Assembly (NCBI RefSeq): GCF_004010195.1 | Contig: NC_057754.1 | Coordinates: 10,860,588 to 10,909,615 of the forward strand | Source of the DNA: Chiloscyllium plagiosum | Taxonomy: Eukaryota | DNA length: 49,028 nt | Reading direction: 5' to 3' | Notes under the pieces: generated by a model | What the model was told of the DNA's origin: nothing | Databases searched by the model: none | The model's input: only the letters and a program-made list of their open reading frames with translations | Translations under genes and position numbers: made by a program | Shown here: positions 7,760-44,509 of the stretch, piece by piece | How the letters are laid out: every line of letters starts with the position of its first letter | Numbering within the stretch: the first letter of the stretch is position 1

Positions 7760-8855
7760 CAGATGACACCAAAACTGGAGGTGCAGTGCATAGCCAAGAA
7801 GGTTGTCTCAGAGTACAACAAGACTTTGATCAGACTGGTCACTGAATGGCAGATAACTTTAATTTAGATAAATGTGAGGTGCTGCACTTTGGAAAGGCAA
7901 ATCAGGGCATGTCTTACATATTTAATGCTCAGCTCCTGGGGAGTGTTGCTGAACAAAGAAACCTCGGTTCATAGTTACTTGAAAGTAGAGTCGCAGGTCG
8001 ACAGGATAGTGAAGAAGGTATTTGGTACGCTTGCTTTTAGTAGTCCATGTTGCGCTGTACTGTTAGGCTACTTTTAGAATACTGCATTCAATTCTGGTCT
8101 CCCTGCTATAGGAAGGATGTTGTGAAGATTTGCAAGGATGTTGCCAGGGTTGGAAGGTTTAAGTGATAGGGAGAGGCTGAATAGGCTGAGGTTATTTTCC
8201 CTAGAGCATCAGACACTGAAGCGTGACCTTACTGAAGTTCATAAAATCATAAGGGGCATAAACAGGGTGATAGGTCAAGGTATTTTCTCCAGGGTGGCAG
8301 AATCCAAAACTAGAGAGCATAGGTTTAAGATGAGACCAGGACCAACCAACCCAACCACCCCATGGCTCAACACTTCAACTCCCCCTCCCACTCCACCAAG
8401 GACATGCAGGTCCTTGGATTCCTCCATCGCCAGACCATAGCAACACGACGGTTGGAGGAAGAACACCTCATCGTCTGTCTAGGAACCCTCCAACCACAAG
8501 GGATGAACTCAGATTTCTCCACTTTCCTCATTTCCCCTCCCCCCACCTTGTCTCAGTCAAATCATGCCCGAAACGTCGATTCTCCTGCTCCTTGGATGCT
8601 GCCTGACCTGCTGCACTTTTCCAGCAACACATTTTCAGCTCTGATCTCCAGCATCTGCAGTCCTCACTTTCTCCTCAAAGGAATTGGTGGAGGCTGGTAG
8701 AATTATACAGTTTAAAATGCACCTGGATGGATATATGACTGGAAAAGGTTTAGAGGAATATGGGCCAAATGCTGGTAAATGGGACTAGATTTATTTAGCA
8801 CATAGAGTTGGAATGGATGAGTTGGACCACAGATGCTGCACACCTCTATGACTCC
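7760..8855 (+). mobile_element. CR1 3' fragment with a nested Penelope fragment
   Basis: DDTKTGG, KVESQVDRIVKK and MLPGLEGLSDRERLNRLRLFSLE, then a CR1 3' tail. Confidence 0.85.
8335..8678 (+). mobile_element. Penelope-like element 3' fragment (GIY-YIG tail and pLTR)
   Basis: AQHFNSPSHSTKDMQVLG...RRLEEEHLIVCLGTLQPQGMNSDF, near-identical in kind to the ORF 28980-29693 tail. Confidence 0.85.
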
Positions 8856-9750: not shown

Positions 9751-12700
9751 CATCCGGGAGTGATGAGCAAGGACTGCTAGGAACCACTTCTTTTAAAAAC
9801 TTATCTCGTGAATAGGTGGAGCGCACGCTGAGCAGGAGAGGACACAAGGCTGCTGAGTAAGTGTAGTAATATAGTTGGATGGTTGTGTTACCTGAAACAC
9901 GACTTAGGCAGTGTATCCCACCCATCCTCATCCTCTAACCACAAGATGAGTTCTGTGCACCAGATTGATAAGGTAACTATTTTTCTTTATTTTTCAACAG
10001 TCTCTTTGGGAATTTAGAATAATGGGAATGGATGTGCAGAATGTGGGAGGTAAGAGTCACCACTAGTGTCTCTGCTAACTTCATCTGTGGGAAGTGCACC
10101 CAATTCTAGCTCATTGAAAACTGCGTTAGGGAGCTGCAGCTGGATGAACTTCGGATCATTTGGGAGGCAGAGGGGTTATCAAGAGGAGTTACGGGGAGAC
10201 AGTCACACCTCAGGTATAAGCAAAAGGCAAATGGATTACAGTCAGGGGATGGAAAGGGAACCGGGAGACAGTGCAGGGAACCCCTGTGGCCATTCCCCTC
10301 AATAATAAGTGTACTGTATTGGGTACTGTTGAGGGGATGACTTACTGGGGTAAGCCATGGGCTACAGGTCTCCAATACAGAACCTGTTCCTGTTGCTCAG
10401 AAAGGAAGGGGGGAAGAGGAGCAGAGCATTAGTCACTGGTGACTCCATAGTTAGGGGGACAGATAGGAGGTTTTGTGTTGCCTCCCAGGTGCCAGGATTC
10501 ATGATGTCTCGGATCATGTTTTTGGGATCCTTGAGGGGGAGGGGGAGCAGTCACAAGTTATGATCCACATGGGTACTAACGACATAGATAAGAAAAGGGA
10601 TGGGTATGTAAGGCAGAAATTCAGGGAGCTAGGGTGGAAGCTTAGAGCTAGAACAAATAGAGTTATCATCTCTGGTTTGTTGCCTGTGCCACATCCTAGT
10701 GAGGCGAGGAGTAGGGAGAGGGAGGAATTGAACTTGTGGCTGTAGAGACGGTGGAGGATGATGGGTTTTGGATAACAATAACTGAGACTCGTTCTGGGGT
10801 AGGTGGCACCTCTACAAACAGATGGTCTACAACTGAACCAGAGGGGCACCAATACCCTGGGGGATTTGCTAATGCTTTTTGGGAGGGTTTAAACTAATTC
10901 AGCAGGGGCATGGAACCTAAATTGTGGTTCCAGAGTCCAGGAGATTGAGTGTAGAGAGGTCAGAAGTAAGGTTTCAAAATCACAAGAGTGCACCAATAAG
11001 TATGAAGGTGGTTTGAAGTGTGTCTACTTCAACACCAGGAGCATCCAGAGTAAGGTGAGTGAGCTTGCAGCATGGGTTGGTACCCAGGACTTCGATGTTG
11101 TTGCCATTTTGGCGACATGGATACAGCAGGGACAAGAATGGTTGTGGCAGGTTCCGGGATTAGATAGTTCAGTAAGAACAGAAAAGATGGTAAAAGAGGG
11201 GGAGGTGTGGCATTGTTCGTCAAGGACAGCATTACGATAGCAGAATGGATGTCTGAGGACTCGTCTACTGAGGTAGTACGAGCTGAGGTTAGAAACTGGA
11301 AAGGACAGGTCACCCTGTTGGGAGTTTTCTAAAGGCCTCTGAATCGTTCCAGAGATTAGAGGAAAGGATAGCAAAAAATGACTCTGGATAGGAGTGAGAG
11401 TAACTGGATATTTGCTATGGAGGATTTGAACTTTCCAAATATTGACTGGAAATAGATAGTTGATTACTTTAGATGAGTCAGTTTTTGTCAAATGTGTGCA
11501 GGAGGGTTTCCTGACACAGTATGGAGACAGGCCAACAAGGGGCGAGACCACATTGGATTTGGTACTGGGTAATGAACCCGGCCAGGTGTTGGATTTGGAG
11601 GTAGGTGAGCACTTTGGTGGTGGTGACCACAACTCGGATATGTTTAGCTTAGTGATGGAAAGGAATAGGTATATACCACAGGCCAGGAATTAGTTGGTGG
11701 AAAGGCAATTATGATGCGATTAGGCAAGGTTTTGGATGCATAGGATGGGGAAGTAAACTGCAGGAAATAGGCACAATTAAAATGTGGAGCTTATTCAAAT
11801 AACAGCTACTGCATGTCCTTGATAAGTATGTACCTGTCAGGCTGGGAAGTAGGGGTCGAGCAAGGGAGCTGTGGTTTACTAAAAATGTTGAATCTCTTGT
11901 GAAGAGGAAGAAGGCGGCTTATGTTAGGATGAAATGTGAAGCCTCAGTTGGAGCACTTGAAAGTTACGAGTTAGCGAGGAAAGACTAAAGAGAGAGCTAA
12001 GAAGAGCCAGGAGGCTACATAAGAAGTCATTGGCAGATAGGGTCAAAGAAAACCCTGAAACTTTCTATCGGTATATCAGGAATATAAGAATGACAAGAGT
12101 AAGATTAGGGCCAATCAAGGATAGTAGTGGTAAGTTGTACGTGAAGTCCGAGGAGATAGGGAAAGTGCTAAAAGAATATTTCCCATTAGCATTCACACTG
12201 GAAAAAGACACTGTTGTTGAGGAGAATACGGAGATACAGGCTACTAGACTAGACGGGATTGAGGCTCACATGGAGGAGGTGTTAGCAACTCCAGGAAGTG
12301 TGAAAATAGATAAGTCCCCTCGGCTGGCTGGGATTTACCCTAGGATTCTCTGGGAAGTCATGGAGAAGATTGCAGAGCCTTTGGCTTTGATCTTTATTGT
12401 CTCCACAAATAGTGCCAGAATACTGCAGGATAGCAAATGTGTCCCCTTGTTCAAGGAGGGGAGTAGTGACAACCCTTGTAAGAATAGACCAGTAAGCCTC
12501 ACTTCGGTTGTGGTTAAAGTGTTTGAAAAGGACTATAAGAGATAGGATTTATGATCATCTAGAGAAAAATAAGTGGATTAGGGATAGACAACATGGTTTT
12601 CTGAAGGGTAGGCCGTGCCTCACAAATCTTATTGAGTTCTTTGAGAAGGTGACCAAACAGGTGGATAAGGCCTTTGACATGGTGTGTATGGATTTCATTA

Positions 12701-13817
12701 AAGCGTTTGATAAGGTTTCCCTTGGTACGCTACTGCACAAAATATGGACTCATGGGATTGAGGGTGATTTACAGGTTTGGATCAAAAGTTGGTGAGCTGA
12801 AAGAAAACAAAGGCTGGTGGTTGATAGGAAATGTTCATCCTGAAGTTCAGTTACAAGTGGTGTACCGCAAGGATCTGTTTTGTGACATTGCTGTTTGTCA
12901 TTTTTATAAATGACCTGGACGAGGATGTAGAAGGATGGGTTAGTAAATTTGTGGATGACACCAAGGTAAGTGGAGTTGTGGATAGTGCTGAAGGATGTTG
13001 CAGGTTTCAGAGGGACATATTAAGCTGCAGAACTGGGCTGAGGGGTGGCAAATGGAATTTAATGTGGAAAAATGAGAGGTGATTCACTTTGGAAAAAACA
13101 ACAGGAATAAAGCGTCTTGGGCTAATGATAAGATTCTTGGTAATGTAGATGAACAGAGAAATCTTGCTGTCCATGTACATAGATCCCTGAAAGTTGCCAC
13201 CCAGCTTGATAGGGTTGTTAAGAAGGCATACTGTGTATTAGCTTTTATTGGCAGAAGGACTGAGTTTCGGAGCCATGAGGTCACGCTGCAGCTGTACAAA
13301 ACTCTGGTGCAGCCGCACTTAGAGTATTGCATACAGTTCTGGTCACCGCATTATAGGAAGGATGTGGAAGCTTTGGCAAGGGTTCAGAGGAAATTTACTT
13401 GGATGTTGCCTGGTACAGAGGGATGGTCTTATGAGAAAAGGTTGAGAGACTTGAGGCTGTTTTCATTAGAGAGGAGAGTTGAGAGGTGACTTCATAGAGA
13501 CATACAAAATGATCAGAGGATTAGGTAGGATGGACAGTGAGAGCCTTTTTCCTCAGATAGTGACAGTTGGCATGAGGCGAGATAACTTTAAATTGAGGGG
13601 TGACAGATATAGGACAAATGTCAGAGGTAGTTTTTTTACTCAGAGTAGTAGCTTGCAGCAGTACCAACCTTGCCAACTTTAAGGGCATTTAAATAGTCAC
13701 TGGATAAACATATGGATGAAAATGGAATAGTGTAGGTTGATGGGCTTCAGATTGGGTCTACAGGTTGACACAACATCGAGGGCCGAAGGGCCTATACTGC
13801 GCTATTCTATTCTATGT
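9751..13817 (+). mobile_element. Near full-length CR1 LINE: ORF1 with SGNH-esterase, ORF2 with APE endonuclease and RT, decayed
   Basis: ORF1 motifs LVTGDSIVRG, CLPGARIHDV and IHMGTND. ORF2 motifs KCVYFNTRSI, RPTRGETTLDLVL, DHN, CMDFIKAFDKV, FVDDTKV and HLEYCIQFWSP. (TTCTA)n tail. Confidence 0.93.
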
Positions 13818-14950: not shown

Positions 14951-16102
14951 ATAACAGGATGAGCCAGTGAATTTTGTTGGAGTGGTAACGAAAAGCACAG
15001 TGGAGGCTGGAAAGCTGCACCAGAATATTCAACCTGATCGGAGGTTGGTTAAAGAGAAAGAGCCAAATTTTTTTAAACCATATACCTGCGAAGGTAAAGT
15101 TTACTCGTATAGGCCAGCAGCAGCAGGTAAAGAGGTTACAATATTAAGAGATACAAGATCCTCTCAATCTTTGATGTTGACAGATGATGGGATATGTACC
15201 TCTGAAGGACTATTGTCAGAAAAAGTGCTAGTAAGGGAATTCACGGTGAGACATGAAGCACTCAATTACAGAGGGTGAGGTTAACGTGTGCAGTGAAGAA
15301 TGGAGAAGTCGTGGTAGGAGTACTGGACAAACTCTCAGCTCCAGCTAACGATTTAACTGGTTCACAGGTAGGAGTGCTGCCCACTGTGGTTGAAAAGCCA
15401 GTGGAAACTCAGGCAACTGAAGTATGACAGAAAGCATATCCTGACTGTGTGGTAACGAAGTCACAAAGTCACTAGTTGAAACAGGAGAGATCAAAGAGTA
15501 CAGATAAGAAAGTTGACGTGGAACAAGCAGACACCCTGTTCGATCAAATGGTTGAGACAAACCAGGAGCAGGAGGAAGACAAAGCAGACATCTTTAGTTC
15601 AGAGAAATTAACTGAGTTGCAGGAGAAAGAAGGGAAACTACAGCAATTGTATCAAAAAGCATACACGGAAGGAGAATCTAGATATATCTCAGTGTGCTAC
15701 TATCTTAAAAATGATGTCTTAATGAGAAAATGGAGACCATCACGTCTTCACTCAGATGAGAAATGGGTAGACATTCATCAAGTTGTATTGCCAATGGGTT
15801 ATAAAAAGGAGGTGTTGCAGATAGCACACGGACTACCAGTAAGAGGTCATTGGAGGGTAAGAAAAACTCAAACTAAAATATGAAAACATTTTTACTGGCC
15901 TGGACTGCACAAGGATATAGTTGAATTTTGCCACACATCTCATACATGACAGGTAATTGGAAAACCACAGGCAGTAATAAAACCTGCACCTTTAATACCT
16001 ATTCCTGCATTTGGGGGACATTCTACAAAGTCTTAATTGATCGCATAGGACCCCTACCTAAAATAAAACAATAATGGATGTGTCCACTAGATTTCCAAAG
16101 GC

Positions 16103-16452
16103 CAGGGGTGGCATGGTGGCTCAGTGGTTAGCACTACTGCCTCACAGAGCCAGGGACCTAGGTTCGATTCCAGCCTTGGGTGACTGCCTGTGGGGAGTAT
16201 ACACATTCTCTCCGTGTCTGCGTGGGTTTCCTCCGGGTGTTCCGGTTTTCTCCCACAATCCAAAGATAAGCTGGTTAGGTGAATTGGCTATGCTAAATTG
16301 CCCATAGTGTTCAGGGATGTAGGTTAGATGCAATAATCAGGGGTAAACCTAGGATAACAGGGGATTGGGCCTGGGTGGGTTACACTTTGGAGGGTCGGTG
16401 TGGACTTGTTGGGCCGAAGGGCCTGTGTCTACACTGTAGAGATTCTATGACT
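16103..16452 (+). mobile_element. HE1-type SINE inside the integrase
   Basis: GGTGGCTCAGTGGTTAGCACT A box, GGTTCGATTCC B box, tail GATTCTATGA. Confidence 0.92.
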
Positions 16453-18425
16453 CTTCAAGAACCAAAGTAGGGATTCTATTCCATTACACAATATCACAGC
16501 TAAAAGGATTGTAGGGGAGGTACTCAACTTTTTCACGAGATATGGACTTTGCACAGAGATACAAAGAGATCAAGAGTCAATCTTTACGTCAAAATCATGA
16601 AAGGAAGTTATAGACACCTTAGTAATAAATCAATTCAAATCTACCGCATGCCATCCAGAATCACAGTGAGTACTCGAAAGGTGGCATCAGATATTAAAGA
16701 CCATGTTAAGGGCTTATAGTCAAGACTATCCAGATGATTGGGTTAAAGGACTTCAGTTTGTACTTACTGCTATCAGAGAAGCACCAAATGAATCAACCAA
16801 ATTCAGTCCATCAATCCAAATTAGTTTTTGGGCATGAAGCGAGAGGACCGTTAAAATTGATTAGGGAGAAATTGGTAAGTCATAATTCAGAGACCACACA
16901 GTTTTACTGTGTGTTAAACTTTAGGGAACAGTTAAATAAAGTGGGGGAATTGGCTATACAGCATTTAAAAGTATCACAGCATACACTGAAACAGGAAGCT
17001 GACAAGAAATCAAACACTCGCTTAGTTACTTCTAGTGGTAGGTGAACCTTTAAAATCAAGGTTTAGTAGACCTCACCAAGTCAAAAGAAGGTTGAGTGAG
17101 TTGAACTATTTGATAAGGACTCCAGACAGAAATAAATCTCACAGAATGTGTTGTGTGAATATGCTCAAAAAGGTACTTTGACAGGGAAGGAAAGTTAAAG
17201 GAGGTTGTGTTATTGGTTACAACACAGAGGGAAGAACCAAGTTCAGAGTATTCTGAATTTGACATTACTCAAAAGAAATTGGACAATGTGGAAGTTATCA
17301 AAAGTTGGGATAAATTATTGAGCTACCTTCCTGAGGAAAATCAAAATGACCTGAAAGTGTTATTACTATCACATGGCGAGATATGTGGAAATAACCTGGG
17401 AAGTACTAACTTAATTGTGCATGACATAGATATAGGACATGCCAATCTGAATAAGCTACATCATTTTGGGCTTAAACCCCTGAAATTTGCACAGGTTCAA
17501 AAGGAGATTGAACACATGCTCCAAGATGACAGATTTAAAGTCAGCTGCAGTGACTGAAACTCACCAATAATAATGGTGCCAAAACCAGATGGTACCCAAT
17601 GGCAATGTGTGGACTATCACAAAGTTAATGCAGTCACAGATACAGATTCGTATCTGATTCATGTTTGGAAGACTGTGTTGAAAAGGTGGGACAAGCAACT
17701 TGTATTACTGAGTTGGACTTACTCAACGATACTCGCAGGTACCTTTGTCTGAAAGAGCAAAGTCAATTTTGGTTTCGTAACGCCGAATGGACTCTGATCA
17801 GTTTAAAGCCATGCCATTTGATATGAAAAATGTGGCAGTTTCATTTCAAAGTCTAACCAATAAGGTCATTTCTAGTTTACCCAATTTTAAATATTGGTGA
17901 TTTTTAATCACACATGGAAGGAACATTTTTCAGAATTGTTCAATCGACTGCTGAAGAGTGACTTTGCCAAAGCCGAAGTTACCTTCCTGGGTCATGTTGT
18001 TGGACGTGGTTCACGGGATGCAAAAACAAAGGTAATTGGGAGTTTCCTATACCATCGACAAAAAGAGCAGGACTACGATTTCTTGGATTCAATTAATTTT
18101 ATCAAGTGGCTGCTTTGCTCACTGAATTACTGAAGATAGGTAAGATGCTTCAGTGGAGAGTGGTCTACGAAAAGGCATTTGACAGCCTGAAAACTGTTAA
18201 CCACTGCCACAATGTTAGCCCCACCTAATTACGTGAAGCTATTCAAGGTGGCTATTATGCGGCTGTCAGTGCTGTGCTCTTCCATGAGGATGACGTGAAG
18301 ATAGAAAGACCTATCGGGTATCTCTCCAGGAAATTGAACATTCATCAGCAGAAGTATTCAACAGTTGAGAAGGAGACTTTGAGCTTGGTGTTGGCATCAC
18401 AACATTTCAATGTTAATGTTACCAG

Positions 18426-19122
18426 AGAGACCTTGGAGTGCAAGTTCATAGCTCCTTGAAAGTGGAGTCGCAGGTAGATAGGATAGTGAAGAAAGTGTTT
18501 GGTATGCTTTCCTTTATTGGTCAGAGTACTGAGTACAGGAGTTGGAGGTCATGTTGCAGCTGTACAGGTCATTGGTTAGACCACTGTTGGAATATTGTGT
18601 ACAGTTCTGGTCTCCCTCCTATCGGAAAGATGTTGTGAAACTTGAAAGGGTTCAGAAAAGATTTACAAGGATGTTGCCAGGGTTGGAGGATTTGAGCTAT
18701 AGGGAGAGGTTGAATAGGCTGGGGCTGTTTTCTCTGGAGCTGAGGGGTGACTTAATAGAGGTTTATAAAATCATGAGGGGCATGGATTGGATAAATAGAC
18801 AAAGTCTCTTCTCTGGGGTGGTGGAGTCCAGAACGAGAGGTCATGCGTTTAGGGTGAGAGGGGAAAGATATGAAAGAGACCTAAGGGGCAACTTTTTCAC
18901 GCAGAGGGTGGTACGTGTATGGAATGAGCTGCCAGAGGGAATGATGGAGGCTAGTACAATTGCAACATTTAAAAGGCATCTGGATGGATATATGGACAGG
19001 AAGGGTTTGGATAGATATGGGCCCGGAGCTGGCAAGTGGGACTAGATTGGGTTGGCATATCTGGTCGGCATGGATGAGTTGGATCGAAGGGTCTGTTCCA
19101 TGCTGTACATCTCTATGACTAT
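18426..19122 (+). mobile_element. CR1 3' fragment inside RNaseH
   Basis: ORF 18542-19045 LLEYCVQFWSPSYRKDVVKLERVQKRFTRMLPG; ACCAG on both flanks (possible TSD). Confidence 0.92.
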
Positions 19123-19990: not shown

Positions 19991-20170
19991 CACAGAAGAA
20001 AACTGAATTTCAAGTAAATTAACTATTTGAAGACCCAGCCAACACGAAAATGCAACTTAACGAAGAGCTGGTGCAATTTCCTGCAACATCAGACAGAGAA
20101 AGAGAGAGAGAGAGATCCGACAGAGAGAGAGAGAGAGAGATCCGACACAGAGAGAGAGAGAGAGAGATCC

Positions 20171-22821
20171 GATATCACAGAGAGAGAGATATCACAGAGA
20201 GAGAGATATCACAGAGAGAGAGATATCACAGAGAGAGAGATATCACAGAGAGAGAGATATCACAGAGAGAGAGATATCACAGAGAGAGAGATATCACAGA
20301 GAGAGAGATATCACAGAGAGAGAGATATCACAGAGAGAGAGATATCACAGAGAGAGAGATATCACAGAGAGAGAGATATCACAGAGAGAGAGATATCACA
20401 GAGAGAGAGATATCACAGAGAGAGAGATATCACAGAGAGAGAGATATCACAGAGAGAGAGATATCACAGAGAGAGAGATATCACAGAGAGAGAGATATCA
20501 CAGAGAGAGAGATATCACAGAGAGAGAGATATCACAGAGAGAGAGATATCACAGAGAGAGAGATATCACAGAGAGAGAGATATCACAGAGAGAGAGATAT
20601 CACAGAGAGAGAGATATCACAGAGAGAGAGATATCACAGAGAGAGAGATATCACAGAGAGAGAGATATCACAGAGAGAGAGATATCACAGAGAGAGAGAT
20701 ATCACAGAGAGAGAGATATCACAGAGAGAGAGATATCACAGAGAGAGAGATATCACAGAGAGAGAGATATCACAGAGAGAGAGATATCACAGAGAGAGAG
20801 ATATCACAGAGAGAGAGATATCACAGAGAGAGAGATATCACAGAGAGAGAGATATCACAGAGAGAGAGATATCACAGAGAGAGAGATATCACAGAGAGAG
20901 AGATATCACAGAGAGAGAGATATCACAGAGAGAGAGATATCACAGAGAGAGAGATATCACAGAGAGAGAGATATCACAGAGAGAGAGATATCACAGAGAG
21001 AGAGATATCACAGAGAGAGAGATATCACAGAGAGAGAGATATCACAGAGAGAGAGATATCACAGAGAGAGAGATATCACAGAGAGAGAGATATCACAGAG
21101 AGAGAGATATCACAGAGAGAGAGATATCACAGAGAGAGAGATATCACAGAGAGAGAGATATCACAGAGAGAGAGATATCACAGAGAGAGAGATATCACAG
21201 AGAGAGAGATATCACAGAGAGAGAGATATCACAGAGAGAGAGATATCACAGAGAGAGAGATATCACAGAGAGAGAGATATCACAGAGAGAGAGATATCAC
21301 AGAGAGAGAGATATCACAGAGAGAGAGATATCACAGAGAGAGAGATATCACAGAGAGAGAGATATCACAGAGAGAGAGATATCACAGAGAGAGAGATATC
21401 ACAGAGAGAGAGATATCACAGAGAGAGAGATATCACAGAGAGAGAGATATCACAGAGAGAGAGATATCACAGAGAGAGAGATATCACAGAGAGAGAGATA
21501 TCACAGAGAGAGAGATATCACAGAGAGAGAGATATCACAGAGAGAGAGATATCACAGAGAGAGAGATATCACAGAGAGAGAGATATCACAGAGAGAGAGA
21601 TATCACAGAGAGAGAGATATCACAGAGAGAGAGATATCACAGAGAGAGAGATATCACAGAGAGAGAGATATCACAGAGAGAGAGATATCACAGAGAGAGA
21701 GATATCACAGAGAGAGAGATATCACAGAGAGAGAGATATCACAGAGAGAGAGATATCACAGAGAGAGAGATATCACAGAGAGAGAGATATCACAGAGAGA
21801 GAGATATCACAGAGAGAGAGATATCACAGAGAGAGAGATATCACAGAGAGAGAGATATCACAGAGAGAGAGATATCACAGAGAGAGAGATATCACAGAGA
21901 GAGAGATATCACAGAGAGAGAGATATCACAGAGAGAGAGATATCACAGAGAGAGAGATATCACAGAGAGAGAGATATCACAGAGAGAGAGATATCACAGA
22001 GAGAGAGATATCACAGAGAGAGAGATATCACAGAGAGAGAGATATCACAGAGAGAGAGATATCACAGAGAGAGAGATATCACAGAGAGAGAGATATCACA
22101 GAGAGAGAGATATCACAGAGAGAGAGATATCACAGAGAGAGAGATATCACAGAGAGAGAGATATCACAGAGAGAGAGATATCACAGAGAGAGAGATATCA
22201 CAGAGAGAGAGATATCACAGAGAGAGAGATATCACAGAGAGAGAGATATCACAGAGAGAGAGATATCACAGAGAGAGAGATATCACAGAGAGAGAGATAT
22301 CACAGAGAGAGAGATATCACAGAGAGAGAGATATCACAGAGAGAGAGATATCACAGAGAGAGAGATATCACAGAGAGAGAGATATCACAGAGAGAGAGAT
22401 ATCACAGAGAGAGAGATATCACAGAGAGAGAGATATCACAGAGAGAGAGATATCACAGAGAGAGAGATATCACAGAGAGAGAGATATCACAGAGAGAGAG
22501 ATATCACAGAGAGAGAGATATCACAGAGAGAGAGATATCACAGAGAGAGAGATATCACAGAGAGAGAGATATCACAGAGAGAGAGATATCACAGAGAGAG
22601 AGATATCACAGAGAGAGAGATATCACAGAGAGAGAGATATCACAGAGAGAGAGATATCACAGAGAGAGAGATATCACAGAGAGAGAGATATCACAGAGAG
22701 AGAGATATCACAGAGAGAGAGATATCACAGAGAGAGAGATATCACAGAGAGAGAGATATCACAGAGAGAGAGATATCACAGAGAGAGAGATATCACAGAG
22801 AGAGAGATATCACAGAGAGAG
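20171..22821 (+). repeat. Tandem array of the 17-bp unit GATATCACAGAGAGAGA, 156 copies in exact register
   Basis: GATATC runs from 20171 to 22806 = 155 x 17 bp; degenerate units at 20092-20170 and 22822-22970. Confidence 0.97.
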
Positions 22822-23002
22822 CGCGCGAGATAGCGATCAGAGAGCGCAAGATCAGAGAGAGCAATGGAGAGAGAGATCAGAGTGTTCAGAGAGAGCGCGA
22901 GAGAAATCAGAGAGAGAGATCAGAGAGAGAGATCAGTGATCGAGAGAGAGAGATCACAGAGAGAGCGAGAGAAAAAAATCAGCATGGAGCTGTTTCTTTG
23001 AG

Positions 23003-27130: not shown

Positions 27131-29247
27131 GAACTGTCAAACAATTCACTCTTAGATTCACAGGATCCCAAAGAATCAAGCAGCTCTGCAAAACAAAAAT
27201 TATAAAAGTCATCATCACTTTCAGTCCAGGATAGAGAGTCAGAAAGCACAACTCTAGTTTCAATCAAATATTCCTGCCTCTCTTGTGCCCAAAAATCTCT
27301 CATATTCCAAGCATTGTCTCCATCCTCACTCTGCTTTACCTAATACGCATACTATAAATTCTCCAAAAGGTGATGATTCATGCTGAGTGACAGACTTACG
27401 TTTCCTGTAATTAAATAGGTATTTGGTGAACTGAGTAAAGTATAGAGCTGTATGAGATATATGAGGAATGTGAAAAATAACAATGACCTGCACTACTGCC
27501 TTTTTTTATTCTTATTCACTCAAAGAATGTAGACATCATTGGCTCAGCCAACATTTATTGCCTGTCTCTATTTGCTCCTGACAAGGTTCAAACAAAAACA
27601 ATCAGCGATTTGAAATCAAAATCTGATGGTCACTTAATGGATGCGAATTTGCAGGGCGACAAGCATGCAGAGCAGCAAATGGAACAGACTGGATTGCTTT
27701 GCAGTGTTGGTGTGGAGTCAAGATATGAATGTGTCCTGTATCATAATGACTTTCTGATTGTATATGTATTATGTAGCTACAATATTGTATTACAAGACTA
27801 GAAACAATGATAATGACACTTTGTTTATAGATCTATAAGCAATATGTTGAATATCTATTAAATAACAACACAAGAAATATCTATCATTTATTCCCCTTAA
27901 ATATCAGCTGTTACCTGAGTAAATCATTCTTTTAATTGTGAATACTAAGAAGGAGGCATTATTTTACTCAGACAAGAATATGTGTCAAACTGAGAGAGTA
28001 AAAGATGTCAGCGTCCATAAGACAGAAATAGGAACCAACCTCTCCTAAATCTGCAAACTCCTGGATTCACTTCCTTTCCCTCTAGTTGCTACTACCAGTG
28101 ACCAGTTTCTCACTTCCCTCCTAAGATGGTCTAGAGGAGGTCATTTCATCAGTCTGAATTTTTCCATGCACACAGTGCTATCTGGAGCAGTTAATTATTT
28201 CTCCTCACAGATTTAAAGTTCAATGATACTCCTGTCCAAATGGATCGAGTGACTCGGTCAGATCTTCAGATCAAGCTTGATTTGAGAATTATGTCTGAAA
28301 ATTCTATCCTGCTGATCCTACAGTGTACTTAAGTCATCACCTGAAGTAGAGGTGATACATTATTTCAAAATTTTATTGAATGGGGCACTTGAAGAAAATA
28401 AATTTGCAAGGCTTTAGAGAGTGGATAGAACTTAACTGCCTCTTAAACCCTGACTATCTCTGATTGAAATCCTATATTTAAGAACATTGAGAAAGAGGCC
28501 ACCATATTCGGCAGGCAAATAAACGTATAAAGATAAGAGCAAATACTGACAATAACTTTCAGAGAGAGATATACCCGACTCAAACTTTCCAACATCTGCT
28601 AACTCACTGGATTCACTTCCTCTGCCTTGAATCGCTTGAAGTGAACAATTTCATCCATCTTACTCCCTCCCAGAATGTTACACAGAAGAGGCAATTTCAC
28701 TCTGACTCTCAATGGACAACGTCCGCATTATGATGTTTGCAATCAGCATGGGGCTTGCCTGAGGCAGTCAATAGGCAGGTGTGAGGATTCCTTGAGGTAA
28801 AAACAATGACTGCAGATGCTGGAAACCAGATTCTGGATCAGTGGTGCTGGAAGAGCACAGCAATTCAGGCAGCATCCGAGAGAGAGGAGGAAAACTTCTT
28901 CAAGGCAGGCATCCTTGCAAGAGGATTCGCAGTAGGGTTAAAATCAACGAGGTAAAAACAATGACTCCCACCCTACCTCTTGCAAAAATGCCATCCCGTA
29001 TTCCCAATTCCTCCGCGTATCTGCTCCCAGGAGGAGCAGTTCCACCATAGAACACACCAGATGGCCTCCTTCTTTAGAGACCGCAATTTCCCTTCCCACG
29101 TGGTTAAAGATGCCCTCCAACGCATCTCGTCCACATCCCGCACCTCCGCCCTCAGACCCAACCCCTCCAACCGCAACAAGGACAGAACGCCCCTGGTGCT
29201 CACCTTCCACCCTACCAACCTTCGCATAAACCAAATCATCCGCCGAC

Positions 29248-29491
29248 NNNNNNNNNNNNNNNNNNNNNNNNNNNNNNNNNNNNNNNNNNNNNNNNNNNNN
29301 NNNNNNNNNNNNNNNNNNNNNNNNNNNNNNNNNNNNNNNNNNNNNNNNNNNNNNNNNNNNNNNNNNNNNNNNNNNNNNNNNNNNNNNNNNNNNNNNNNNN
29401 NNNNNNNNNNNNNNNNNNNNNNNNNNNNNNNNNNNNNNNNNNNNNNNNNNNNNNNNNNNNNNNNNNNNNNNNNNNNNNNNNNNNNNNNNNN
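29248..29491. other. Assembly gap (244 N)
   Basis: Run of n. Confidence 1.
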
Positions 29492-29899
29492 NCGCCCCGT
29501 GGCTCAACATTTCAACTCCCCCTCCCACTCTGCCGAGGGTATGGAGGTGCTGGGCCTCCTCCACCGCCGCTCCCTCACCACCAGATGCCTGGAGGAAGAA
29601 CGCCTCATCTTCTGCCTCGGAACACTTCAACCCCAGGGCATCAGTGTGGATTTCAACAGTTTCCTCATTTCCCGTTCCCCCACCTCATCCTAGCTTCTAA
29701 CCTCCAGAAACTCGATCCCCTGACCTGTCCGGACTTGTCCGACCTGCCCAGCTCGTTTTCCACCTATCCACTCCACCCTCTCTTCCCTGACCTATCACCT
29801 TCATCTCCTTCCCCACTGACCTATTGTACTCTATGCCACTCTATCCCCACCCCCGCCCTCCTCTAGCTTATCTCTCCACGCTGCAGTCTCTCTGCCTTT

Positions 29900-29935
29900 A
29901 TTCCTGATGAAGGGCTTTTGCCCGAAACGTCGATT
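29900..29935 (+). ncRNA. Minimal type-I hammerhead ribozyme-like motif in the pLTR
   Basis: AUUC-CUGAUGA-A-GGGC-UUUU-GCCC-GAAAC-GUC-GAUU. Confidence 0.7.
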
Positions 29936-30227
29936 TTGCCTGTCCTCGGATGCTGCCTGAATTGCTGTGCTCTTCCAGCACCACTGATCCAGAAGTGAGG
30001 ATTCCTTGCAGAGTCTCACTTAAGTCCAGAGCTTTGAATGTAACAGGAATGATTCGATACCGAATGATGTGCTAAATTATCAATCAAACTCCATCTCCTG
30101 ACCTCATTCCATCGTTGGCCAACCCATGTGCTAGGCAATTTACTGTCCTGCGTTGTAATTCAAGAGTTGTCAAATTGTGAGCAAATTAATTGTAACAAAG
30201 CTCAGGAAGAATAAAAATTACTAGAAC

Positions 30228-30546
30228 TCAGTGGTTTGCACTGCTGCCTCACTGCGCCAGGGAGCCAGGTTCGATTCCTGCCTCGGGCGACTGTCTGTGT
30301 GGAGTTTGTACATTCTCCCCGTGTCCGCGTGGTTTTCCTCCGGGTGCTCCGGTTTCCTCCCACAGTCCAAAGATGTGCAGGTTAGGTAATTTGGCCGTGC
30401 TAAATTGTCCCATAGTGTTAGGTGCATTAGTCGGGGTAAATATGGGATAGGGGAATGGGTCTGGGTGGGTTACTCTTCGGAGGGTCGGTGTGGACTTGTT
30501 GGGCCGAAGGGCCTGTTTCCACACTGTAGGGAATCTAATCTAATCT
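30228..30546 (+). mobile_element. HE1-type SINE, slightly 5'-truncated
   Basis: CTCAGTGGTTTGCACTGCTGCC, GGTTCGATTCC and an (AATCT)n tail. Confidence 0.92.
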
Positions 30547-30554
30547 AAAAATAG

Positions 30555-31150
30555 AAAACGCTGTGCTCGGCGGAGATGTCCCCACGTTCCAGGCTACCGA
30601 CCAAGCGCGCAGATACAGGCGCCCGTACCCCCACATCCTTCTCCCTCTCGTCGAGCCTGGGTTTCCAGAGCAACCGTCTGCCGCCTCGGGCCAGAGCGGG
30701 ACGCCTCTTGATGATCTCATCCTCAACCTCACAGGCAGCACAGGGACCAATAAACGGGGAGAGGGCGTGGCTGGCGGACCAAACCGCAGCGTCTGGTCCT
30801 CCAACCAATGGGAGTGAATGGGGGGGGGAGAGCGAGCAGGACCACACGTGACCATTAACGCTACTGGCACAGACCCCCTGTGGCTAGTGCTTGAGTGGCG
30901 AAGGGAAAGCAGAAGAAGCAGTAGACATCGGGAGAAAAATACAGTCAGTCTGGTTTGGTGCGTTTCACGAGCATTCGGTGTAGGTTGTTAGACTCGAATT
31001 AGAAATTCGCGGACCCGCGTTAGCAGCAAATGGAAAACCGGCTGCAGGACTTAGGCGGTGATAGGCCTCGTATTAACAGCGCCATCTTTATTGGGGGCAA
31101 GGTGCAGCAGCGCATATGGACTTCCTATTTCCTGGGTCGGGGCGGAGCAA
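30555..31150. promoter_or_regulatory. CpG-island promoter, likely serving the ZF gene and possibly bidirectional
   Basis: High CpG density in non-repeat sequence; CCAAT 30805, E-box CACGTG 30845, YY1 motif CGCCATCTT 31080-31088, GC box GGGGCGGAG 31139-31147. Confidence 0.75.
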
Positions 31151-31187
31151 TTTGAAGTGGAGCATTTGTATACAGCAAGCTGAAACC

Positions 31188-32671: not shown

Positions 32672-32882
32672 CTGGAGAAAGTGAGGACTGCAGATGCTGG
32701 AGATCAGAGCTGAAAATGTGTTGCTGGAAAAGCGCAGCAGGTCAGGCAGCATCCAGCGAACAGGAGAATCGACGTTTCGGGCATAAGCCATTCCTGAAGA
32801 AGGGCTTATGCCCGAAACGTCGATTCTCCTGTTCCCTGGATGCTGCCTGACCTGCTGCGCTTTTCCAGCAACACATTTTCAG
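32672..32882. mobile_element. Palindromic Penelope-pLTR-derived mini-insertion with an intact hammerhead-like motif (32794-32821)
   Basis: Near-perfect inverted arms; 12-bp TSD CAACCTTCTTTA at 32660-32671 and 32883-32894. Confidence 0.9.
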
Positions 32883-33853
32883 CAACCTTCTTTAGTCTCT
32901 AACAACAGCCAAGGCATCCTTCCTTTGAAAAGGAGAACAAAACTGCACACACTACTCCATTTGTAGTCTTACCAAGGCCTGAACAGAAAGACACCCCTGC
33001 TCCTGTACTCCAGTCCTCTCAATATGAAGGTCCATATATCATTTGCATTCTTTTTAAAAGATCTAAACCCAGAAAATATCCCAAAACAATTCCTTCCCTA
33101 TGAAATTCATTAGGAAAAAGCTTGCCACTCCTGCCTGCTTACTAATAGAGAGGTTCACACTGAAACACAGAGCAAAATAGGGTCATAGACTCTGATATAG
33201 AATTGTTGATCACAATGTCCCCATTGTATCCATGCTGGTCATGAAGCATGTATTTACACTTATCCCATTTTCTGGCACTCAACATGTAAACTATATTGTT
33301 AAGGCTTTTATGATCATCTAAACATTTCTTCAATGGTTCCTGCATCTGTTACCATTTCAGGTGTTACCAGATCTGCTGAGTATCTCTAGAATTATCATTT
33401 CAGATTTTCACTATTTTGCTTCTGCAATTGTTCTTAGTCTTTCAGAGGGATCGAAGAAAACAGGAACAGGATTGATATGCAGATCTATAAAATGCCTCTC
33501 CTCCTCCCCGCCACTGGCTCTCCCACCTTTGCACAGGCACTGACTGGTCTCAGACCCTGAAGGAGATATATAAACCAGTCCAGTTTTAATGATGTGTGGG
33601 CTCCACAAAGGACCAGATTAATTTCTCTCAGACTCAACCTGTTTTCTTCTGGTTTTCCCTCTCTCCTTACTTCAGTTTTCTGTTTGAAAGGTTGATTTGC
33701 AGAGGAAATCAAATTCAGATCTGATATTCAGTCTGTTTATTATAACCTATTTATCTCAGGATTTTGAACATTGAGGGGGGGAAAAGTACCATTTACTCCG
33801 GAGAAAAACACAAATAATCAACATGTGGGAGAGTCTGTGAAGATTTTTCGGAA

Positions 33854-34903
33854 ATGTCCAAACACCAGCGCAGTCACACTGTGGAGAGACTGTGGAAATG
33901 TGGGGATTGTGGGAAGGGATTTTTTTACCCATGCCAGCTGGAAATTCACCAACGCAGTCACACTGGGGAGAAGCCTTTCACCTGCTCTGATTGTGGGAAA
34001 AGATTCACTCGGTCATCTGACATGTTCAAACATCAGCGAGTTCACACAGGGGAAAGACCATTCACCTGCTCTGATTGTGGAAAAGGATTCAGTCAGTCAT
34101 CCGAACTGCTGAGACATCAACGAGTTCACACTGGGGAGAAACCATTCACCTGTTCTGAATGTGGAAAAGGATTCAGTCAGTCATCCAGTCTACTAGAACA
34201 CAAGCGATTTCACACTGGGGAGAGACCATTCACCTGTTCTGAATGTGGGAAAGGATTCACTCACTCATCTAACCTACTGATACACCAGCGAGTTCACACC
34301 GGGGAGAAACCGTTTATCTGTTCTGAGTGTGGGAAGGGATTCACTCGGTCATCAAGTCTGCTGATACATCAGCGAGTTCACACTGGGCAGAGCCCATTCA
34401 TATGTTCCGAATGTGGGAAAGTATTCACTTGCTCATCAAAACTGTTGACACACCAACGAATTCACACTGGAGAGAAACCATTTACCTGTTCTGACTGTGG
34501 GAAGGGATTTACTAGATCGTCCAGCCTGCTGATACATCAGCGAGTTCATACTGGAGAGCGACCATTCACTTGTTCTGAGTGTGGGAAAGCATTCACTCAG
34601 ACAACTCACCTGCTGATTCACCAGCGCGTTCACACTGGAGAAAAACCATTCATCTGCTGTGACTGTGGGAAGGGATTTGCTCGGTCATCTAACCTGCTGA
34701 TACATCAGCGAGTTCACTCTGGGGAGAGACCGTTCACCTGCTCTGATTGTGGGAAGCGATTCACTCATTCATCTAACCTGCTGATACACCAGCGAGTTCA
34801 TACTGGGGAGAAACCATTCACCTGTTCTGAGTGTGGAAAGAGATTCACTCGATCATCGAACCTGTTAACACACCAGCAAATTCACAAAGAACCACTGGCT
34901 TGA
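33854..34903 (+). CDS. Tandem C2H2 zinc-finger protein, 349 aa, 12 fingers, no recognisable effector domain
   Basis: Uninterrupted ORF with 12 CxxC-x12-HxxxH fingers and TGE(K/R)P linkers; acceptor TCTCAG|G at 33759/33760; ATTAAA at 34983. Confidence 0.92.
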
Positions 34904-35051: not shown

Positions 35052-35255
35052 TGTGTTGTTGGAAAAACATAGCAGGTCAGGCATCATCCGAGGAGCAGGA
35101 GAATCGACGTTTCAGGCCAGAGCCCTTCATCAGGAATGATGCATGGCCCGAAATATCGATTCTCCTGCTCCTCAGATGCTGCTTGACTGCTGTGCTTTTC
35201 CAGCAACACATTCTCGACTCTGATCTCCAGCATCTGCAGACCTCGTTTTCTCCTG
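35052..35255. mobile_element. Palindromic Penelope-pLTR-derived mini-insertion
   Basis: Inverted arms; TSD TGTGTCGGAAAA at 35040-35051 and 35256-35267; hammerhead-like motif on the - strand at 35106-35133. Confidence 0.88.
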
Positions 35256-35869
35256 TGTGTCGGAAAAGACCACCATGCTGCTGTGTGTCAACGTGTGCAG
35301 ACTGGGTAAAGTGTATGAAAAAGGATTTCCTGGTTCATCAGGACTGGGTAATCACCTATGAGTTCCCAATTAACTGTAGGGATTGGTTCTTTGATGCTAC
35401 TGTTACCTATATCCTAACCAAGTTTTCTGTGCCTGCTTCTGATGATGTTTGTAAATATATGTCTGGTTACCTGTGTGCTAGAAAAGTGATATAAATCAGC
35501 TTTTTGTAAAAACTTGTGCATCGAGTCTTTATCTTATCTGTAAAGCAGACTCATTTATTTTGACAGGATCTCCATCTCTTCCATTGTCACCTGGAGTTTG
35601 AGTCACTCAGAGTGACTCAATCAGTCTGCTTTACATGAACGCATGCTGGAAATTAGAAACAAAAACAGAAATTGCTGGAAAAGCTCAATGGGTCAGGCAG
35701 CATCTGTGGTGAGAAATCAGAATTAACATATCAAGTCCAATGACCCCTTTCTGTGAGGGACCTGCTAAGCTTTCCTAGCAATTTCTGTTTTTGCTTCCTA
35801 TGAGAAGTTGGGAGATGGCACATCCAGAGTGAGGGAGAGCCCATAATGCTCCACCGCGCCTAAGGCCTA

Positions 35870-40140: not shown

Positions 40141-40776
40141 AGAAGCATTCGGAATAAGGTGGCTGAACTTGCAGCATAGGTTGGTACTTAAGATTTCGAT
40201 GTTGTGGCTATTTCGGAGACATGGGTAGAGCAGGGACTTGAATGGTTGTTGCAGGTTCTGGGATTTGAATATTTCAGTAAGAACAGGGAAGATGGTAAAA
40301 GAGGTGGCGGTGTGGCATTGTTAGTCAAGGACAGTATTACAGTTGCAGAAAGGACTTTAGAGAACTCGTCTACTGAGGTAGTATGGGCTGAGGTTAGAAA
40401 CAGGAAAGGACAGGTCACCCTGCTCGGAGTTTTCTATAGGCCTCCAAATAGTTCCAGAGATGTAAAGGAAAGGATAGCAAAGATGATTCCTGATAGGAGC
40501 GAGAGTGATAAGGTAGATGGAAAGGGGGATTTTAACTTTTCAAATGTTAACTGCGAATACTATAGTTCAAGTACTTTAGATGGTCCGTATTTGTCCAATG
40601 TGTGCAGGAGGGTTTCCTGACACAGTATGTAGATAGGCCAACAAGGGGCGAGGCCACATTCGATTTGGAATGGGGTAATGAACCCAGCCAGGTGTTAGAT
40701 GTAGAGGTAGGTGAGCACTTTGGTGATAGTGACCACAATTCTGTTATGTTTACTTTAGTTATGGAAAGGGATCGAT

Positions 40777-41125
40777 ATAGAACATAGAACATAGAACAAT
40801 ACAGCACAGAACAGGCCCTTCGGCCCACGATGTTGTGCCGAACTTCTAACCTAGATTAAGTACCCATCCATGTACCTATCCAAATGCCGCTTAAAGGTCG
40901 CCAATGATTCCGACTCTACCACTCCCACGGGCAGCGCATTCCATGCCCCCACCACTCTCTGGGTAAAGAACCCACCCCTGGCATCTCCCCTATACCTTCC
41001 ACCCTTCACCTTAAATTTATGTCCCCTTGTAACACTCTGTTGTACCCGGGGAAAAAGTTTCTGACTGTCTACTCTATCTATTCCTCTGATCATCTTATAA
41101 ACATCTTATGATCATCTTCCTCTCC
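40777..41125 (-). mobile_element. CR1 3' fragment of a different subfamily, nested
   Basis: (ATAGAAC)n tail; ORF 40851-41093 FFTQRVVGAWNALP. Confidence 0.88.
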
Positions 41126-41748
41126 AGATATACTGCAGAGGAAGAGTTATAGCTGGGGAAAAGGCAATTATGATGCGATTAGGCAAGATTTAGGATGCAT
41201 CGATTGGGGAAGGAAACTGCAGGGGATGGGCAGAACTGAAATGTGGAGCTTATTGAAGGAACAGCTACTGCAGGTACTTGATAAGTATGTACCTGTCAGG
41301 CAGGGGGGAAGTTGGTGAGCGTGGGAGCCATGGTTTACTAAGGAAGTTGAATCTCTTGTCAAGAGGAAGAAGAAGGCTTATGTTGGGATGAGACATGATC
41401 TCTCAGTTAGGGCGCTCGAGAGTTACGAGTTAGCCAGGAAAGACTTAAAGAGAAAGCTAAGAAGAGCCAGGCGGGGTTATGAGAAGTCATTGGCCGATAG
41501 GATCAAGAAAAATCCAAAGGCATTCTGTAGGAATATCAAGAATAAAAAAATGACTAGAATACGATTAGGGCCAATCAAGGATACTAGTGGGAAGTTGTGC
41601 GTGGCGTCAGAGGAGATGGGAAAGTGCTAAATTAATATTTTTTGTCGGTATTTACACTAGAAAAAGACAATGTTGTCGAGGAGAATACTGAGAGAGAGGC
41701 TACGAGACTAGATGGGATTGAGGTTCACAAGTAGGAGGGGTTAGCAAT

Positions 41749-42817
41749 TAGAGTCATAGAGATGTACAGCACGGAAAAAGACACTTCGGTCTAACCCATC
41801 CATGCCGACCAGATATCCCAATCCAATCTACTCCTACATGCCAGTACCTGGTCCATATCCATCCAAACCCTTCCTATTCATCCATGCCTTTTAAATGTTG
41901 CAAATATACTGGCCTCCACCACTTCCTCTGGCAGCCCATTCCACACATGCCCCACCCTCTGAGTGAAAAGGTTGCCTCTTAGGTCTCTTTTATATCTTTC
42001 CCCTCTCACCCTAAACGTATAGTTATGGACTCCCCCATCTCAGGGAAAAGACCTTGTCTATTTATCTTATCCATGCCCCTCATGATTTTATAAACCTCTA
42101 TAAGGTCACCCCTCAACCTCCAACGCTTCAGGGATAACAGCCCTAACCTATTCAACCTCTCCCTATAGTTCAAATCCTCCAACTCTGGAAACATCCTTGG
42201 AAATCTTTTCTGGACACTTTCAAGTTTCACAACATCGTTCCGATAGGAAGGAGACCAGAATTGCATGTGATATTCCAAAAGTGGCCTAACCAATGTCCTG
42301 CACAGCTGCAACATGACCTCCCAACTCCTGTACTCAATACTCTGACCAATTAAGGAGTGCATACCAAACGCTTTCTTAACTATCCACCTACCTGTGACTC
42401 TACTTTCAAGGAGCTAGGAACCTGCACTGCAAGGTCTCTTTGTTCAGCAACACTCCCTAGGACCTTACCATTAAGTGTATAAGTCCTGCTAAGGTTTGCT
42501 TTCCCAAAATGCAGCACCTCGCATTTATCTAAATTAAACTGCATCTGCCATTCCTCAGCCTATTGGCTCATCTGATCAAGATCCCGTTGAATCTGAGGTA
42601 ACCTTCTTCGCTATCCATTACACCTCCAATTTTGGTGTCATCTGCAAACATACGAACTGTACCTCTTAAGCTCACATCCAAATCATTTACATAAATGATG
42701 AAAAGTAATGGACCCAGCATGATCCTCCAATCTGAAAAACAACTCTCCACGATCATCCCCTGTCTTCTACCTTTGAGCTATTCTGTATCCAAATGGCTAG
42801 TTCTCCCTGTATTCCTT
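41749..42817 (-). mobile_element. CR1 3' fragment, nested
   Basis: LGPLLFIIYVNDLD, MFADDTKIGG and LLEYHMQFWSP. Confidence 0.9.
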
Positions 42818-43580: not shown

Positions 43581-44373
43581 AAAGTTGAAGGTGATTTAGA
43601 GATTTGGATCAGAAATTGGCTAGCTGAAAGAAGACAGAGGGTGGTGGTTTTTGGGAAATGTTCATCCTGGAGTTTAGTTATTAGTAGTGTACCGTAAGGA
43701 TCTGTTTTGGGTCCACTGCTGTTTGTCATTTTTATAAATGACCTGGATGAGGGCATAAAAGGATGGATTGCTAAGGTCGGTGGAGTTGTGGATAGTGCTG
43801 AAGGATGTTGTAGGTTACAGAGGGACATAGATAAGCTGCAGAGCTGGGCAGAGAGATGGCAAATGTAGTTTAATGTCGAAAAGTGTCAGGTTTTGGAAGG
43901 AGTAACAGGAACACAGAGTACTGGGCTAATGGTAAGATTCTTGGTAGTGTAGATGAGCAGAGAGATCTCGGTGTCCATGTATATAGATCCCTCAAAATTG
44001 CCACCCAGATTGATAAGGTTGTTAAGAAGGCATGCGGTGTGTTAACTTTTATTGGTCGAGGGATTGAGTTTTGGAACCATGAGGTCATGCTGCAGCTGTA
44101 CAAAACTCTGGTGCAGCCACATTTGGAGTATTGCGTATAGATCTAGTCATACTGCATTATAGGAAGGATGTGGAAGCTTTGGAAAGGGCTCAGAGGAGAT
44201 TTGCTAGGATGTTGCTTGGTATGGAAGGAAGGTCTTACGAGGAAAGGCTGAGGGACTTAAGGCTGTTTTTGTTTGACAGAAGAAGGTTGAGAGGTGATTT
44301 AATTGACACATATAAAATAATCAGAGGGTTAGATAGGGTGGACAGTGAGAGCCTTTTTCCTCGGATAGGGATG

Positions 44374-44509
44374 AAAATGTGTTGCTGGAAAAGCGCAACA
44401 GGTCAGGCAGCATCCAAGGAACAGGAGAATCGACGTTTCGGGCATGCTGCGCTTTTCCAGCAACACATTTTCAGCTCTGATCTCCAGCATCTGTAGCCCT
44501 CACTTTCTC
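44374..44509. mobile_element. Short palindromic Penelope-pLTR-derived insertion
   Basis: 16-bp TSD TCCTCGGATAGGGATG at 44358-44373 and 44510-44525. Confidence 0.88.

Follow-up and report, generated by a model that had tools for sequence, protein, structure and literature searches.

What does a hammerhead ribozyme contribute to the Penelope-like element (PLE) that carries it? For endonuclease-bearing (EN+) PLEs, the function of the hammerhead has been called 'still unclear' (PMC8557442). The question is raised by the window analysed here, a stretch of 49,028 nucleotides from the shark Chiloscyllium plagiosum, in which a sequence at 29900-29935 had been described as a minimal hammerhead within a PLE pseudo-LTR (pLTR).

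A minimal hammerhead motif

Re-reading of the sequence matched this motif base for base, with the following parts:

29900-29935, + strand: minimal type-I hammerhead motif, with a predicted cut between 29931 and 29932
29900-29903, + strand: 5' strand of stem I
29904-29910, + strand: CUGAUGA core
29911, + strand: extra A after A9
29912-29915 paired with 29920-29923, + strand: stem II
29924-29927, + strand: GAAA core, followed by C at 29928
29929-29931, + strand: GUC, followed by the 3' strand of stem I at 29932-29935

All the core parts of a minimal type-I hammerhead are present (CUGANGA, GAAA and NUH). Stem I forms three of its four pairs, with a U-U mismatch at the remaining position, and stem II is a predicted hairpin with pairing probabilities of 0.61-0.97 in 400 bases of context. 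The identity first proposed is supported by the extra base after A9 and by the palindromic 15.2/16.2 pair, both of which are features of published PLE hammerheads (PMC4209133). Does the motif fold as a ribozyme? The isolated monomer favours an alternative fold (-11.4 against -5.2 kcal/mol for the hammerhead) and, when two copies were co-folded, the dimer ribozyme was not the predicted minimum-energy structure. Both results fit what has been published: minimal PLE hammerheads show no activity as monomers and low activity as dimers (PMC4209133), and the hammerhead of the anole Poseidon element cuts only with protein and is dispensable for insertion in vitro (PMC11167929).

A scan of the whole window with Rfam covariance models returned no hammerhead match at E<=1, and as far as Rfam is concerned the motif is indeed unannotated. 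The Rfam matches to the palindromes were weak miRNA and snoRNA ones, all under the gathering score, and were rejected. Judged by its sequence, the focal site is a real minimal hammerhead motif in a Penelope-like pLTR, for which self-cleavage is predicted. By itself the locus is ordinary, the minimal PLE hammerhead being already known (Cervera and de la Pena 2014).

The element that carries the motif

The host element is a truncated Penelope-like insertion of 1.2 kb (28795-29994) between 14-bp target duplications. It opens with the end of a pLTR in inverted orientation, tail included, and a short piece of the leader, also inverted; the 3' part of the ORF and a pLTR follow:

28781-28794, + strand: left target-site duplication, 14 bp
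28795-28966, - strand: inverted 5' part, made up of the pLTR end with tail (28795-28880) and a leader/ORF-start piece
28965-29693, + strand: 3' part of the PLE ORF, from the end of the reverse transcriptase (RT) region to the end of the GIY-YIG endonuclease, with a run of N inside
29694-29994, + strand: 3' pseudo-LTR, ending without a tail at the shorter of two 3' end points
29995-30008, + strand: right target-site duplication, 14 bp

The segment 28831-28880 is 100% identical to 29945-29994. The domains of the ORF were assigned from other copies of the family, which are 95-98% identical to the window element over the pLTR side; none of the three ORF pieces in the window had a Pfam match, and a PDB search with the endonuclease piece gave 0 matches. 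Those other copies encode an RT with the YIDD motif and, C-terminal to it, a GIY-YIG endonuclease with CxxC and CCHH, as in EN+ PLEs; a C-x4-C-x2-C motif lies in the linker between the two domains (copies L013, L021 and L088). Pfam matched two of four ORF pieces from the family, GIY-YIG above the cut-off and RVT_1 below it at E 1.8e-4. The insertion traits of EN+ PLEs are also present, namely a direct or inverted pLTR, a one-sided tail and a target duplication. A cysteine motif of this Zn-finger-like kind in the RT-EN linker is a mark of Neptune and Nematis (PMC8557442), and the family is likely to be of Neptune type, the choice between Neptune and Nematis resting on the linker and on the host range given in the literature.

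No full-length element could be assembled from the four inverted pairs retrieved, all of which are truncated or partly N. The 40 scored genome matches to the element's last 115 bases are 99-100% identical to it, which indicates that the family is young. Its ORF frame is open through the hammerhead motif, and the first in-frame ATG of the main family lies well downstream of the motif; an older subfamily has a stop codon in the corresponding frame, as judged by eye. An expansion of Penelope-like elements has been described in a whale shark preprint (10.1101/443036).

Other copies and the surroundings of the locus

Further copies of the motif had been reported at four sites, with partial ones near 8565 and 44432. 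All are present; those at 32794-32821 and 35106-35133 (- strand) are intact, and those at 59-87 and 6955-6982 turn out to be degenerate. They belong to the following insertions:

1-150, + strand: pLTR of an older subfamily, motif at 55-90 with stem II broken
6855-7088: fold-back mini-insertion with a 9-bp duplication, both motifs degenerate (6955, + strand, ACAU; 6943, - strand, C3 to G)
8329-8672, + strand: fragment of a PLE endonuclease, fused to part of a pLTR whose first base (8564) falls in loop II
32676-32883: fold-back mini-insertion of the older subfamily, with a 12-bp duplication nearby
35052-35255: fold-back mini-insertion with a 12-bp duplication, motif at 35102-35137 (- strand)
44367-44509: fold-back mini-insertion with a 16-bp duplication and no complete core

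Stem II of the copy at 59-87 reads GGGC/UCCA, the copy at 6955-6982 has lost the ACGU palindrome, and the intact copy at 35106-35133 has a G-U closing pair and a partner arm without CUGANGA. Neither partial copy has CUGANGA. The sites at 6955, 32794, 35106 and 44432 are all arms of inverted repeats flanked by duplications of 9-16 bp, and the intact motif at 32790-32825 (+ strand) is buried in a hairpin of 85 bp and 98% identity (-179 kcal/mol). In context, the pairing probability of stem II is 0.000 for the copies at 32794, 6955 and 35133. A further fold-back insertion, from an older F-type PLE family and without a complete hammerhead core, was noted at 35656-35797.

Is the window unusually rich in hammerheads, as the preliminary description had it? 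The window was found to contain 13 arms, and only those at 29904 and 32794 match the strict descriptor used here (CUGANGA-N-G..C-GAAAC-GUC, stem pairing not demanded), where 1.5 matches are expected at the genome rate. The local density equals the genome average, and local enrichment was rejected. A looser core pattern gave four matches against 2.0 expected, a number reached in 13 of 100 shuffles; it was discarded as evidence, being not above chance in the window.

The supposed zinc-finger cluster amounts to one intact ORF of 12 fingers at 33818-34903 (+ strand), the rest of the window holding only small relics. Isolated C2H2 finger relics were seen at 6172-6421 (- strand), 26646 (- strand) and 37355 (+ strand). 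A CpG-rich, promoter-like stretch at about 30.5-31.2 kb (30540-31180), with what we take to be GC-box and Ets-like motifs, is a likely promoter of the zinc-finger gene. A promoter there would place the copy at 32790 in an intron or leader.

Other sequences in the window include a purine-rich tandem array of about 2.8 kb (20060-22900, + strand), with a unit of apparently 16 bases and open in each of the three forward frames. ORF fragments of LINE-type RT and endonuclease, presumably CR1-like, lie at 517-948, 11961-13489, 18533-19045, 40192-42413 and 44083-44360; two of these pieces are matched by Pfam RVT_1 and Exo_endo_phos. The broken ORF pieces at 15476-17557 gave no meaningful Pfam match, and we assume that they resemble the pol region of an LTR retroelement.

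Abundance in the genome

How common is the motif in the whole genome? The descriptor search proposed in the preliminary description gave 112,341 matches with the strict pattern (56,186 and 56,155), against 25 (12 and 13) for the reversed control. A second pattern, designed for other stems, gave 1,372 matches against 7. The PLE hammerhead counts published for coelacanth and Xenopus, obtained with another descriptor, are about 4,000 and about 9,000 (PMC4209133). With the reservation that the descriptors differ and that the one used here ignores pairing, the copy number in this shark is about ten times the largest figure of the founding paper. Working ribozymes are far fewer than such motif counts suggest, since hairpins lock up about half of the arms.

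Conservation of the ribozyme fold

An alignment was made of 16 variants, picked by hand from 79 distinct forms and belonging to several subfamilies. In it, 87.5% of the cells that should pair do so, two-sided changes occur in six of the eight pairs, and the score is 0.634, compared with at most 0.135 when the alignment is slid. The pair-count measures were reached by 127 and 166 of 500 shuffles, and are not significant alone. Stem I, which was never part of a search pattern, shows two-sided changes in three of four pairs and is 81.3% paired. Stem II is 93.8% paired; it has G10.1-C11.1, a G-C that the search pattern itself demanded, and is preceded by the extra base that follows A9. Its length varies by 0, 2, 3 and 6 bases among variants. 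The palindromic ACGU (15.1-16.1), which would form stem III of a dimer, is invariant in all 16 rows; this invariance, like that of the core, was forced by the patterns.

Is the core conserved when it has not been searched for? In families assigned by their downstream flank alone, the complete core is found in the majority sequences of A (22 arms), B (52), C (11), D (76) and F (19); family E was partly covered in this way and family G had no such arms. ACGU is also kept in the majorities of families picked by flank. By contrast, the upstream flank of the window copy (family A) and that of a family-F copy match at only 14 of 45 bases. The proposal has thus survived the test named in the preliminary description, that the core might be no more conserved between families than the flanking pLTR sequence.

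Some subfamilies depart from the focal copy. A copy at L037:1497-1532 and family C have a perfect 4-bp stem I, and the minimum-energy fold of the isolated motif has the hammerhead stems; for assays of cleavage, this subfamily is the most promising. A second group, which is Poseidon-like (L059:1497-1538, L115:2943-2984, L154:6718-6759 and L058:1497-1538), has a longer stem II. In these motifs A9, the extra base and G10.1 together spell ATG, as in the anole element, and there is no Initiator at stem I.

Where copies begin and end

If the ribozyme cuts its RNA before reverse transcription, do genomic copies begin at the cut? The ends of copies were mapped in seven unselected 200-kb blocks (1,353,002 non-N bases) and the window, with C3 numbered +1. 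From 203 aligned arms, 125 were kept; the 78 dropped were below 85% identity (38), from another family (14), in the window (13), next to N (9) or references (4). The 5' ends of 34 of the 125 arms fall at -5 to -1 (p 2e-12 against a flat distribution), 13 of them exactly at the A that opens stem I, and those of three fall within one base of the cut (p 0.5). Almost four-fifths of the arms (99/125) span the cut, and only 17 to 18 extend beyond -10. F-type 5' ends gather similarly at -5 to +2 (12 of 39 rows, several D-type rows included). An opposite-strand partner lies within 130 bases of 64 of the 125 arms, and a same-strand neighbour within 1 kb of 11.

The same pattern is seen across the genome. 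Copies of the older family start 17,743 times at the stem I A and 17,497 times one base further in, as against 575 times at the cut, 128 times two bases upstream of it and 679 times two bases downstream. Corrected for the letters in each pattern, these become about 22,600, 24,500, 1,600, 510 and 1,900; the counts include point mutations in longer copies and come from patterns of unequal length. Neither the sample nor the genome-wide counts show a peak at the cut site. Starts at the cut are about three times those two bases upstream, so that some cleavage may occur, although the cut is no higher than the position two bases downstream.

At the other end, copies fall into two classes, ending about 91-95 and 126-131 bases from the stem I A. 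These were defined from non-inverted loci with duplications of at least 7 bases (13 of 26, two being near-duplicates), which start exactly at the A with clean duplications and had been selected for that start. The two classes match the two internal RT starts and optional tail of the anole element. Head-to-head junctions recur, either with both arms complete to the first A and one base between them (L255, L269, L293) or with a 3-base loop (L259, L263, L276); priming of the latter could come from one additional C at the end of the cDNA. At L027, L075 and L084 there are incomplete tandems in which intact motifs on the same strand lie 273-529 bases apart, and these are natural substrates for dimer cleavage.

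Possible promoter signals at the start of stem I

Which feature of the element places so many ends at one base? PLE pLTRs hold internal promoters (PMC2377424, PMC3846280), and TATA- and Inr-like motifs have been noted in a rotifer pLTR (PMC3846280, PMC8557442). The focal pLTR has two candidate signals:

29868-29873, + strand: AT-rich element at -32 relative to the inferred start
29898-29904, + strand: Initiator-like YYANWYY, in which the A at 29900, the first base of stem I, is the inferred start

The Initiator (Inr) consensus is YYANWYY. Families A-C have the AT-rich hexamer at -32 and mostly fit this consensus, and family F has TATAAA at -29, with TCAGTT across the A, in two of three copies and in the majority sequence. 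In family G, ATAAA lies at -30 in two of four copies. No fit to Inr is seen in families E and G, nor in the Poseidon-type family P, and one of three A-type copies also departs from it. Together with the copy ends, these signals make it likely that transcription starts at the first base of stem I, and that capped RNA which had not been cut was the template for most of the short genomic stubs. A reading of the 5' ends as splice acceptors was rejected: family A has a pyrimidine tract and CAG about 14 bases upstream, but the ends pile up at the A and not after AG, and the tract is not common to family B.

Are there traces of the cap itself? An extra G is a sign of cap copying in full-length L1 insertions (PMC11702581). 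Among the first 100 matches listed in each class and counted by eye, the base before the stem I A is G in 57, compared with 17 for copies that start one base further in (Fisher p 6e-9). However, inverted junctions, at which the other arm may supply the G, account for 12 of the 26 G cases among the 40 loci examined. In direct insertions of the G class with a clear duplication, the target shares the G in seven of eight and the G is plainly untemplated in one; the excess could therefore reflect target preference or microhomology. Copies starting one base in are as numerous as those of the A class and seem to owe their ends to microhomology.

A proposed mechanism and its alternatives

The explanation that we consider probable is that the hammerhead of this likely Neptune element begins at the element's transcription start, and that most of its more than 100,000 copies are short cDNAs made from the capped 5' end of RNA that had not been cut. 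An internal pol II promoter in the pLTR would start the RNA at the A of stem I. The element's RT would then start internally, about 95 or about 130 bases downstream, by a mechanism suggested by analogy to the anole element and supported by the two classes of 3' ends. It would read past the uncut GUC and go on to the cap, opposite which it would often add a base; that the site is read through is observed, and copying of the cap is a reading of the extra G. The short cDNA would be inserted alone or as a head-to-head pair, with target duplication, both being forms of insertion found in the genome. To judge from published relatives, the ribozyme would probably cut slowly, and would need either to form a dimer or to have the protein of the element bound to it.

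An extension of this model is put forward more tentatively, as a possibility that we rate below even. The hammerhead may have been built onto the promoter, with the first strand of stem I serving as the initiator, in which case a cut, lying 32 bases from the cap, would remove the cap from the RNA of the element itself. As a switch, gated by protein or by dimer formation, the ribozyme would determine whether the RNA stays capped and translatable or becomes a template in processed or circular form; the stubs would be cDNAs made before the switch, similar to strong-stop products.

Could the ribozyme instead be active in vivo, with tandem transcripts cut at both pLTRs and re-ligated into circles, so that the RT crosses a ligated site (the model of Cervera and de la Pena)? 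The retention of core and stems across families means that the ribozyme is under selection, same-strand tandem motifs exist at spacings of 273-1201 bases, and long copies that run upstream of the motif require uncut tandem RNA or circles; the threefold step at the cut points in the same direction. A circle, however, has no end at the stem I A, which is the commonest end. Furthermore, at least 20 of 30 copies that start at the cut are inverted junctions, seven of them sharing one junction type that complementarity of stem I can generate; none of the reads in anole RNA-seq ended at the cut (PMC11167929), and same-strand neighbours are as scarce as noted above. We regard this model as unlikely, and a cut-and-circularise route may apply to the long copies. 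Somewhat more doubtful is the suggestion that no transcription start is involved and that copies pile up at this 5' position artefactually, either because the RT stalls or because microhomology promotes joining at a preferred sequence. Microhomology of TTC with the inverted arm does predict the equally numerous, one-base-in class, which is C-rich at the junction (46 of 100), and the G is often common to the target. Against this, clean direct insertions also begin exactly at the A (within the limits of how they were selected), the TATA/Inr spacing of family F indicates the same base, and few arms extend beyond -10.

Do the dispersed motifs perhaps work as self-cleaving RNAs and thereby cut transcripts of the host, the zinc-finger pre-mRNA among them? 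The genome-wide number of motifs and the position of the intact, sense-strand copy at 32790-32825, between the CpG-rich stretch and the zinc-finger ORF, favour such a role. That copy, by contrast, sits in its 85-bp hairpin with a stem II probability of 0.000, which makes host RNA cleavage, and the effect on the zinc-finger gene implied at the outset, unlikely; the inverted arm at 32709 is transcribed before the motif, and the copies at 6955 and 35133 are equally unpaired at stem II. In addition, the focal monomer prefers another fold and its two-copy co-fold lacks the dimer ribozyme, published minimal motifs are inactive as monomers (PMC4209133), and the density in the window is average. The idea is very improbable. 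Hardly credible, in our view, is conservation as promoter DNA or protein code rather than as ribozyme. The motif does lie at +1 to +36 of the inferred promoter, and the ORF frame of the young family is open through it. Nevertheless, both stems carry two-sided changes, the length shifts in stem II break the frame, the older subfamily has its stop in frame, and every catalytic position is kept in families picked by flank alone.

Relation to known elements

Neither this class of motif, with its features, nor the architecture with an inverted pLTR is new to the literature. Minimal hammerheads are found in Xena, Poseidon and Neptune elements of fish, and the published PLE hammerheads share with those described here the type I topology without a real stem III, the extra base between 9 and 10.1, G10.1-C11.1, the palindromic 15.2-16.2 and a mostly single, dispersed distribution with some opposite-strand pairs (PMC4209133). 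They differ from the main families here in that stem II of the latter is 4 bp. The text and the parts of the supplement available for that paper name no shark and do not discuss the position of the motif with respect to the transcription start.

The anole Poseidon element PAc (Frangieh et al. 2024, PMC11167929) also has a hammerhead in its pLTR, two internal RT starts that yield an optional tail, and uncut RNA as its main template. Its ORF starts inside the hammerhead, which in the shark is true only of the minor P family, the first ATG of the main family being downstream; the evidence for PAc comes from in vitro work, whereas the evidence here is genomic. Insertions of other EN+ PLEs likewise have an inverted 5' pLTR, a one-sided tail of 30-40 bp and a target duplication, with the Zn-finger-like linker motif in Neptune and Nematis (PMC3846280, PMC8557442), but most insertions here are stubs of 95-250 bp. 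In Drosophila Penelope, a 75-bp intron lies 46 bp after the start (PMC2377424), whereas here the start appears to be the first base of the ribozyme. Non-LTR retrozymes, reported in the single chondrichthyan sampled, also contain PLE-derived type I hammerhead sequences but form head-to-tail tandem arrays (bioRxiv 10.64898/2026.07.22.740005), in contrast to the dispersed single or head-to-head copies described here; retrozyme identity was rejected on the counts of same-strand and opposite-strand neighbours. A literature search gave no report of shark PLE hammerheads or of a start at stem I, either of which subscription papers or preprint supplements may hold.

The ends of the shark copies bear on the open question of hammerhead function, as most dispersed copies cross the cut and stop at an apparent capped start. 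The value of the finding lies in the copy number and in a connection, open to testing, of the ribozyme with the start site and with uncut templates. If the promoter and the ribozyme do form a switch, the genome would provide a direct read-out of what PLE hammerheads do.
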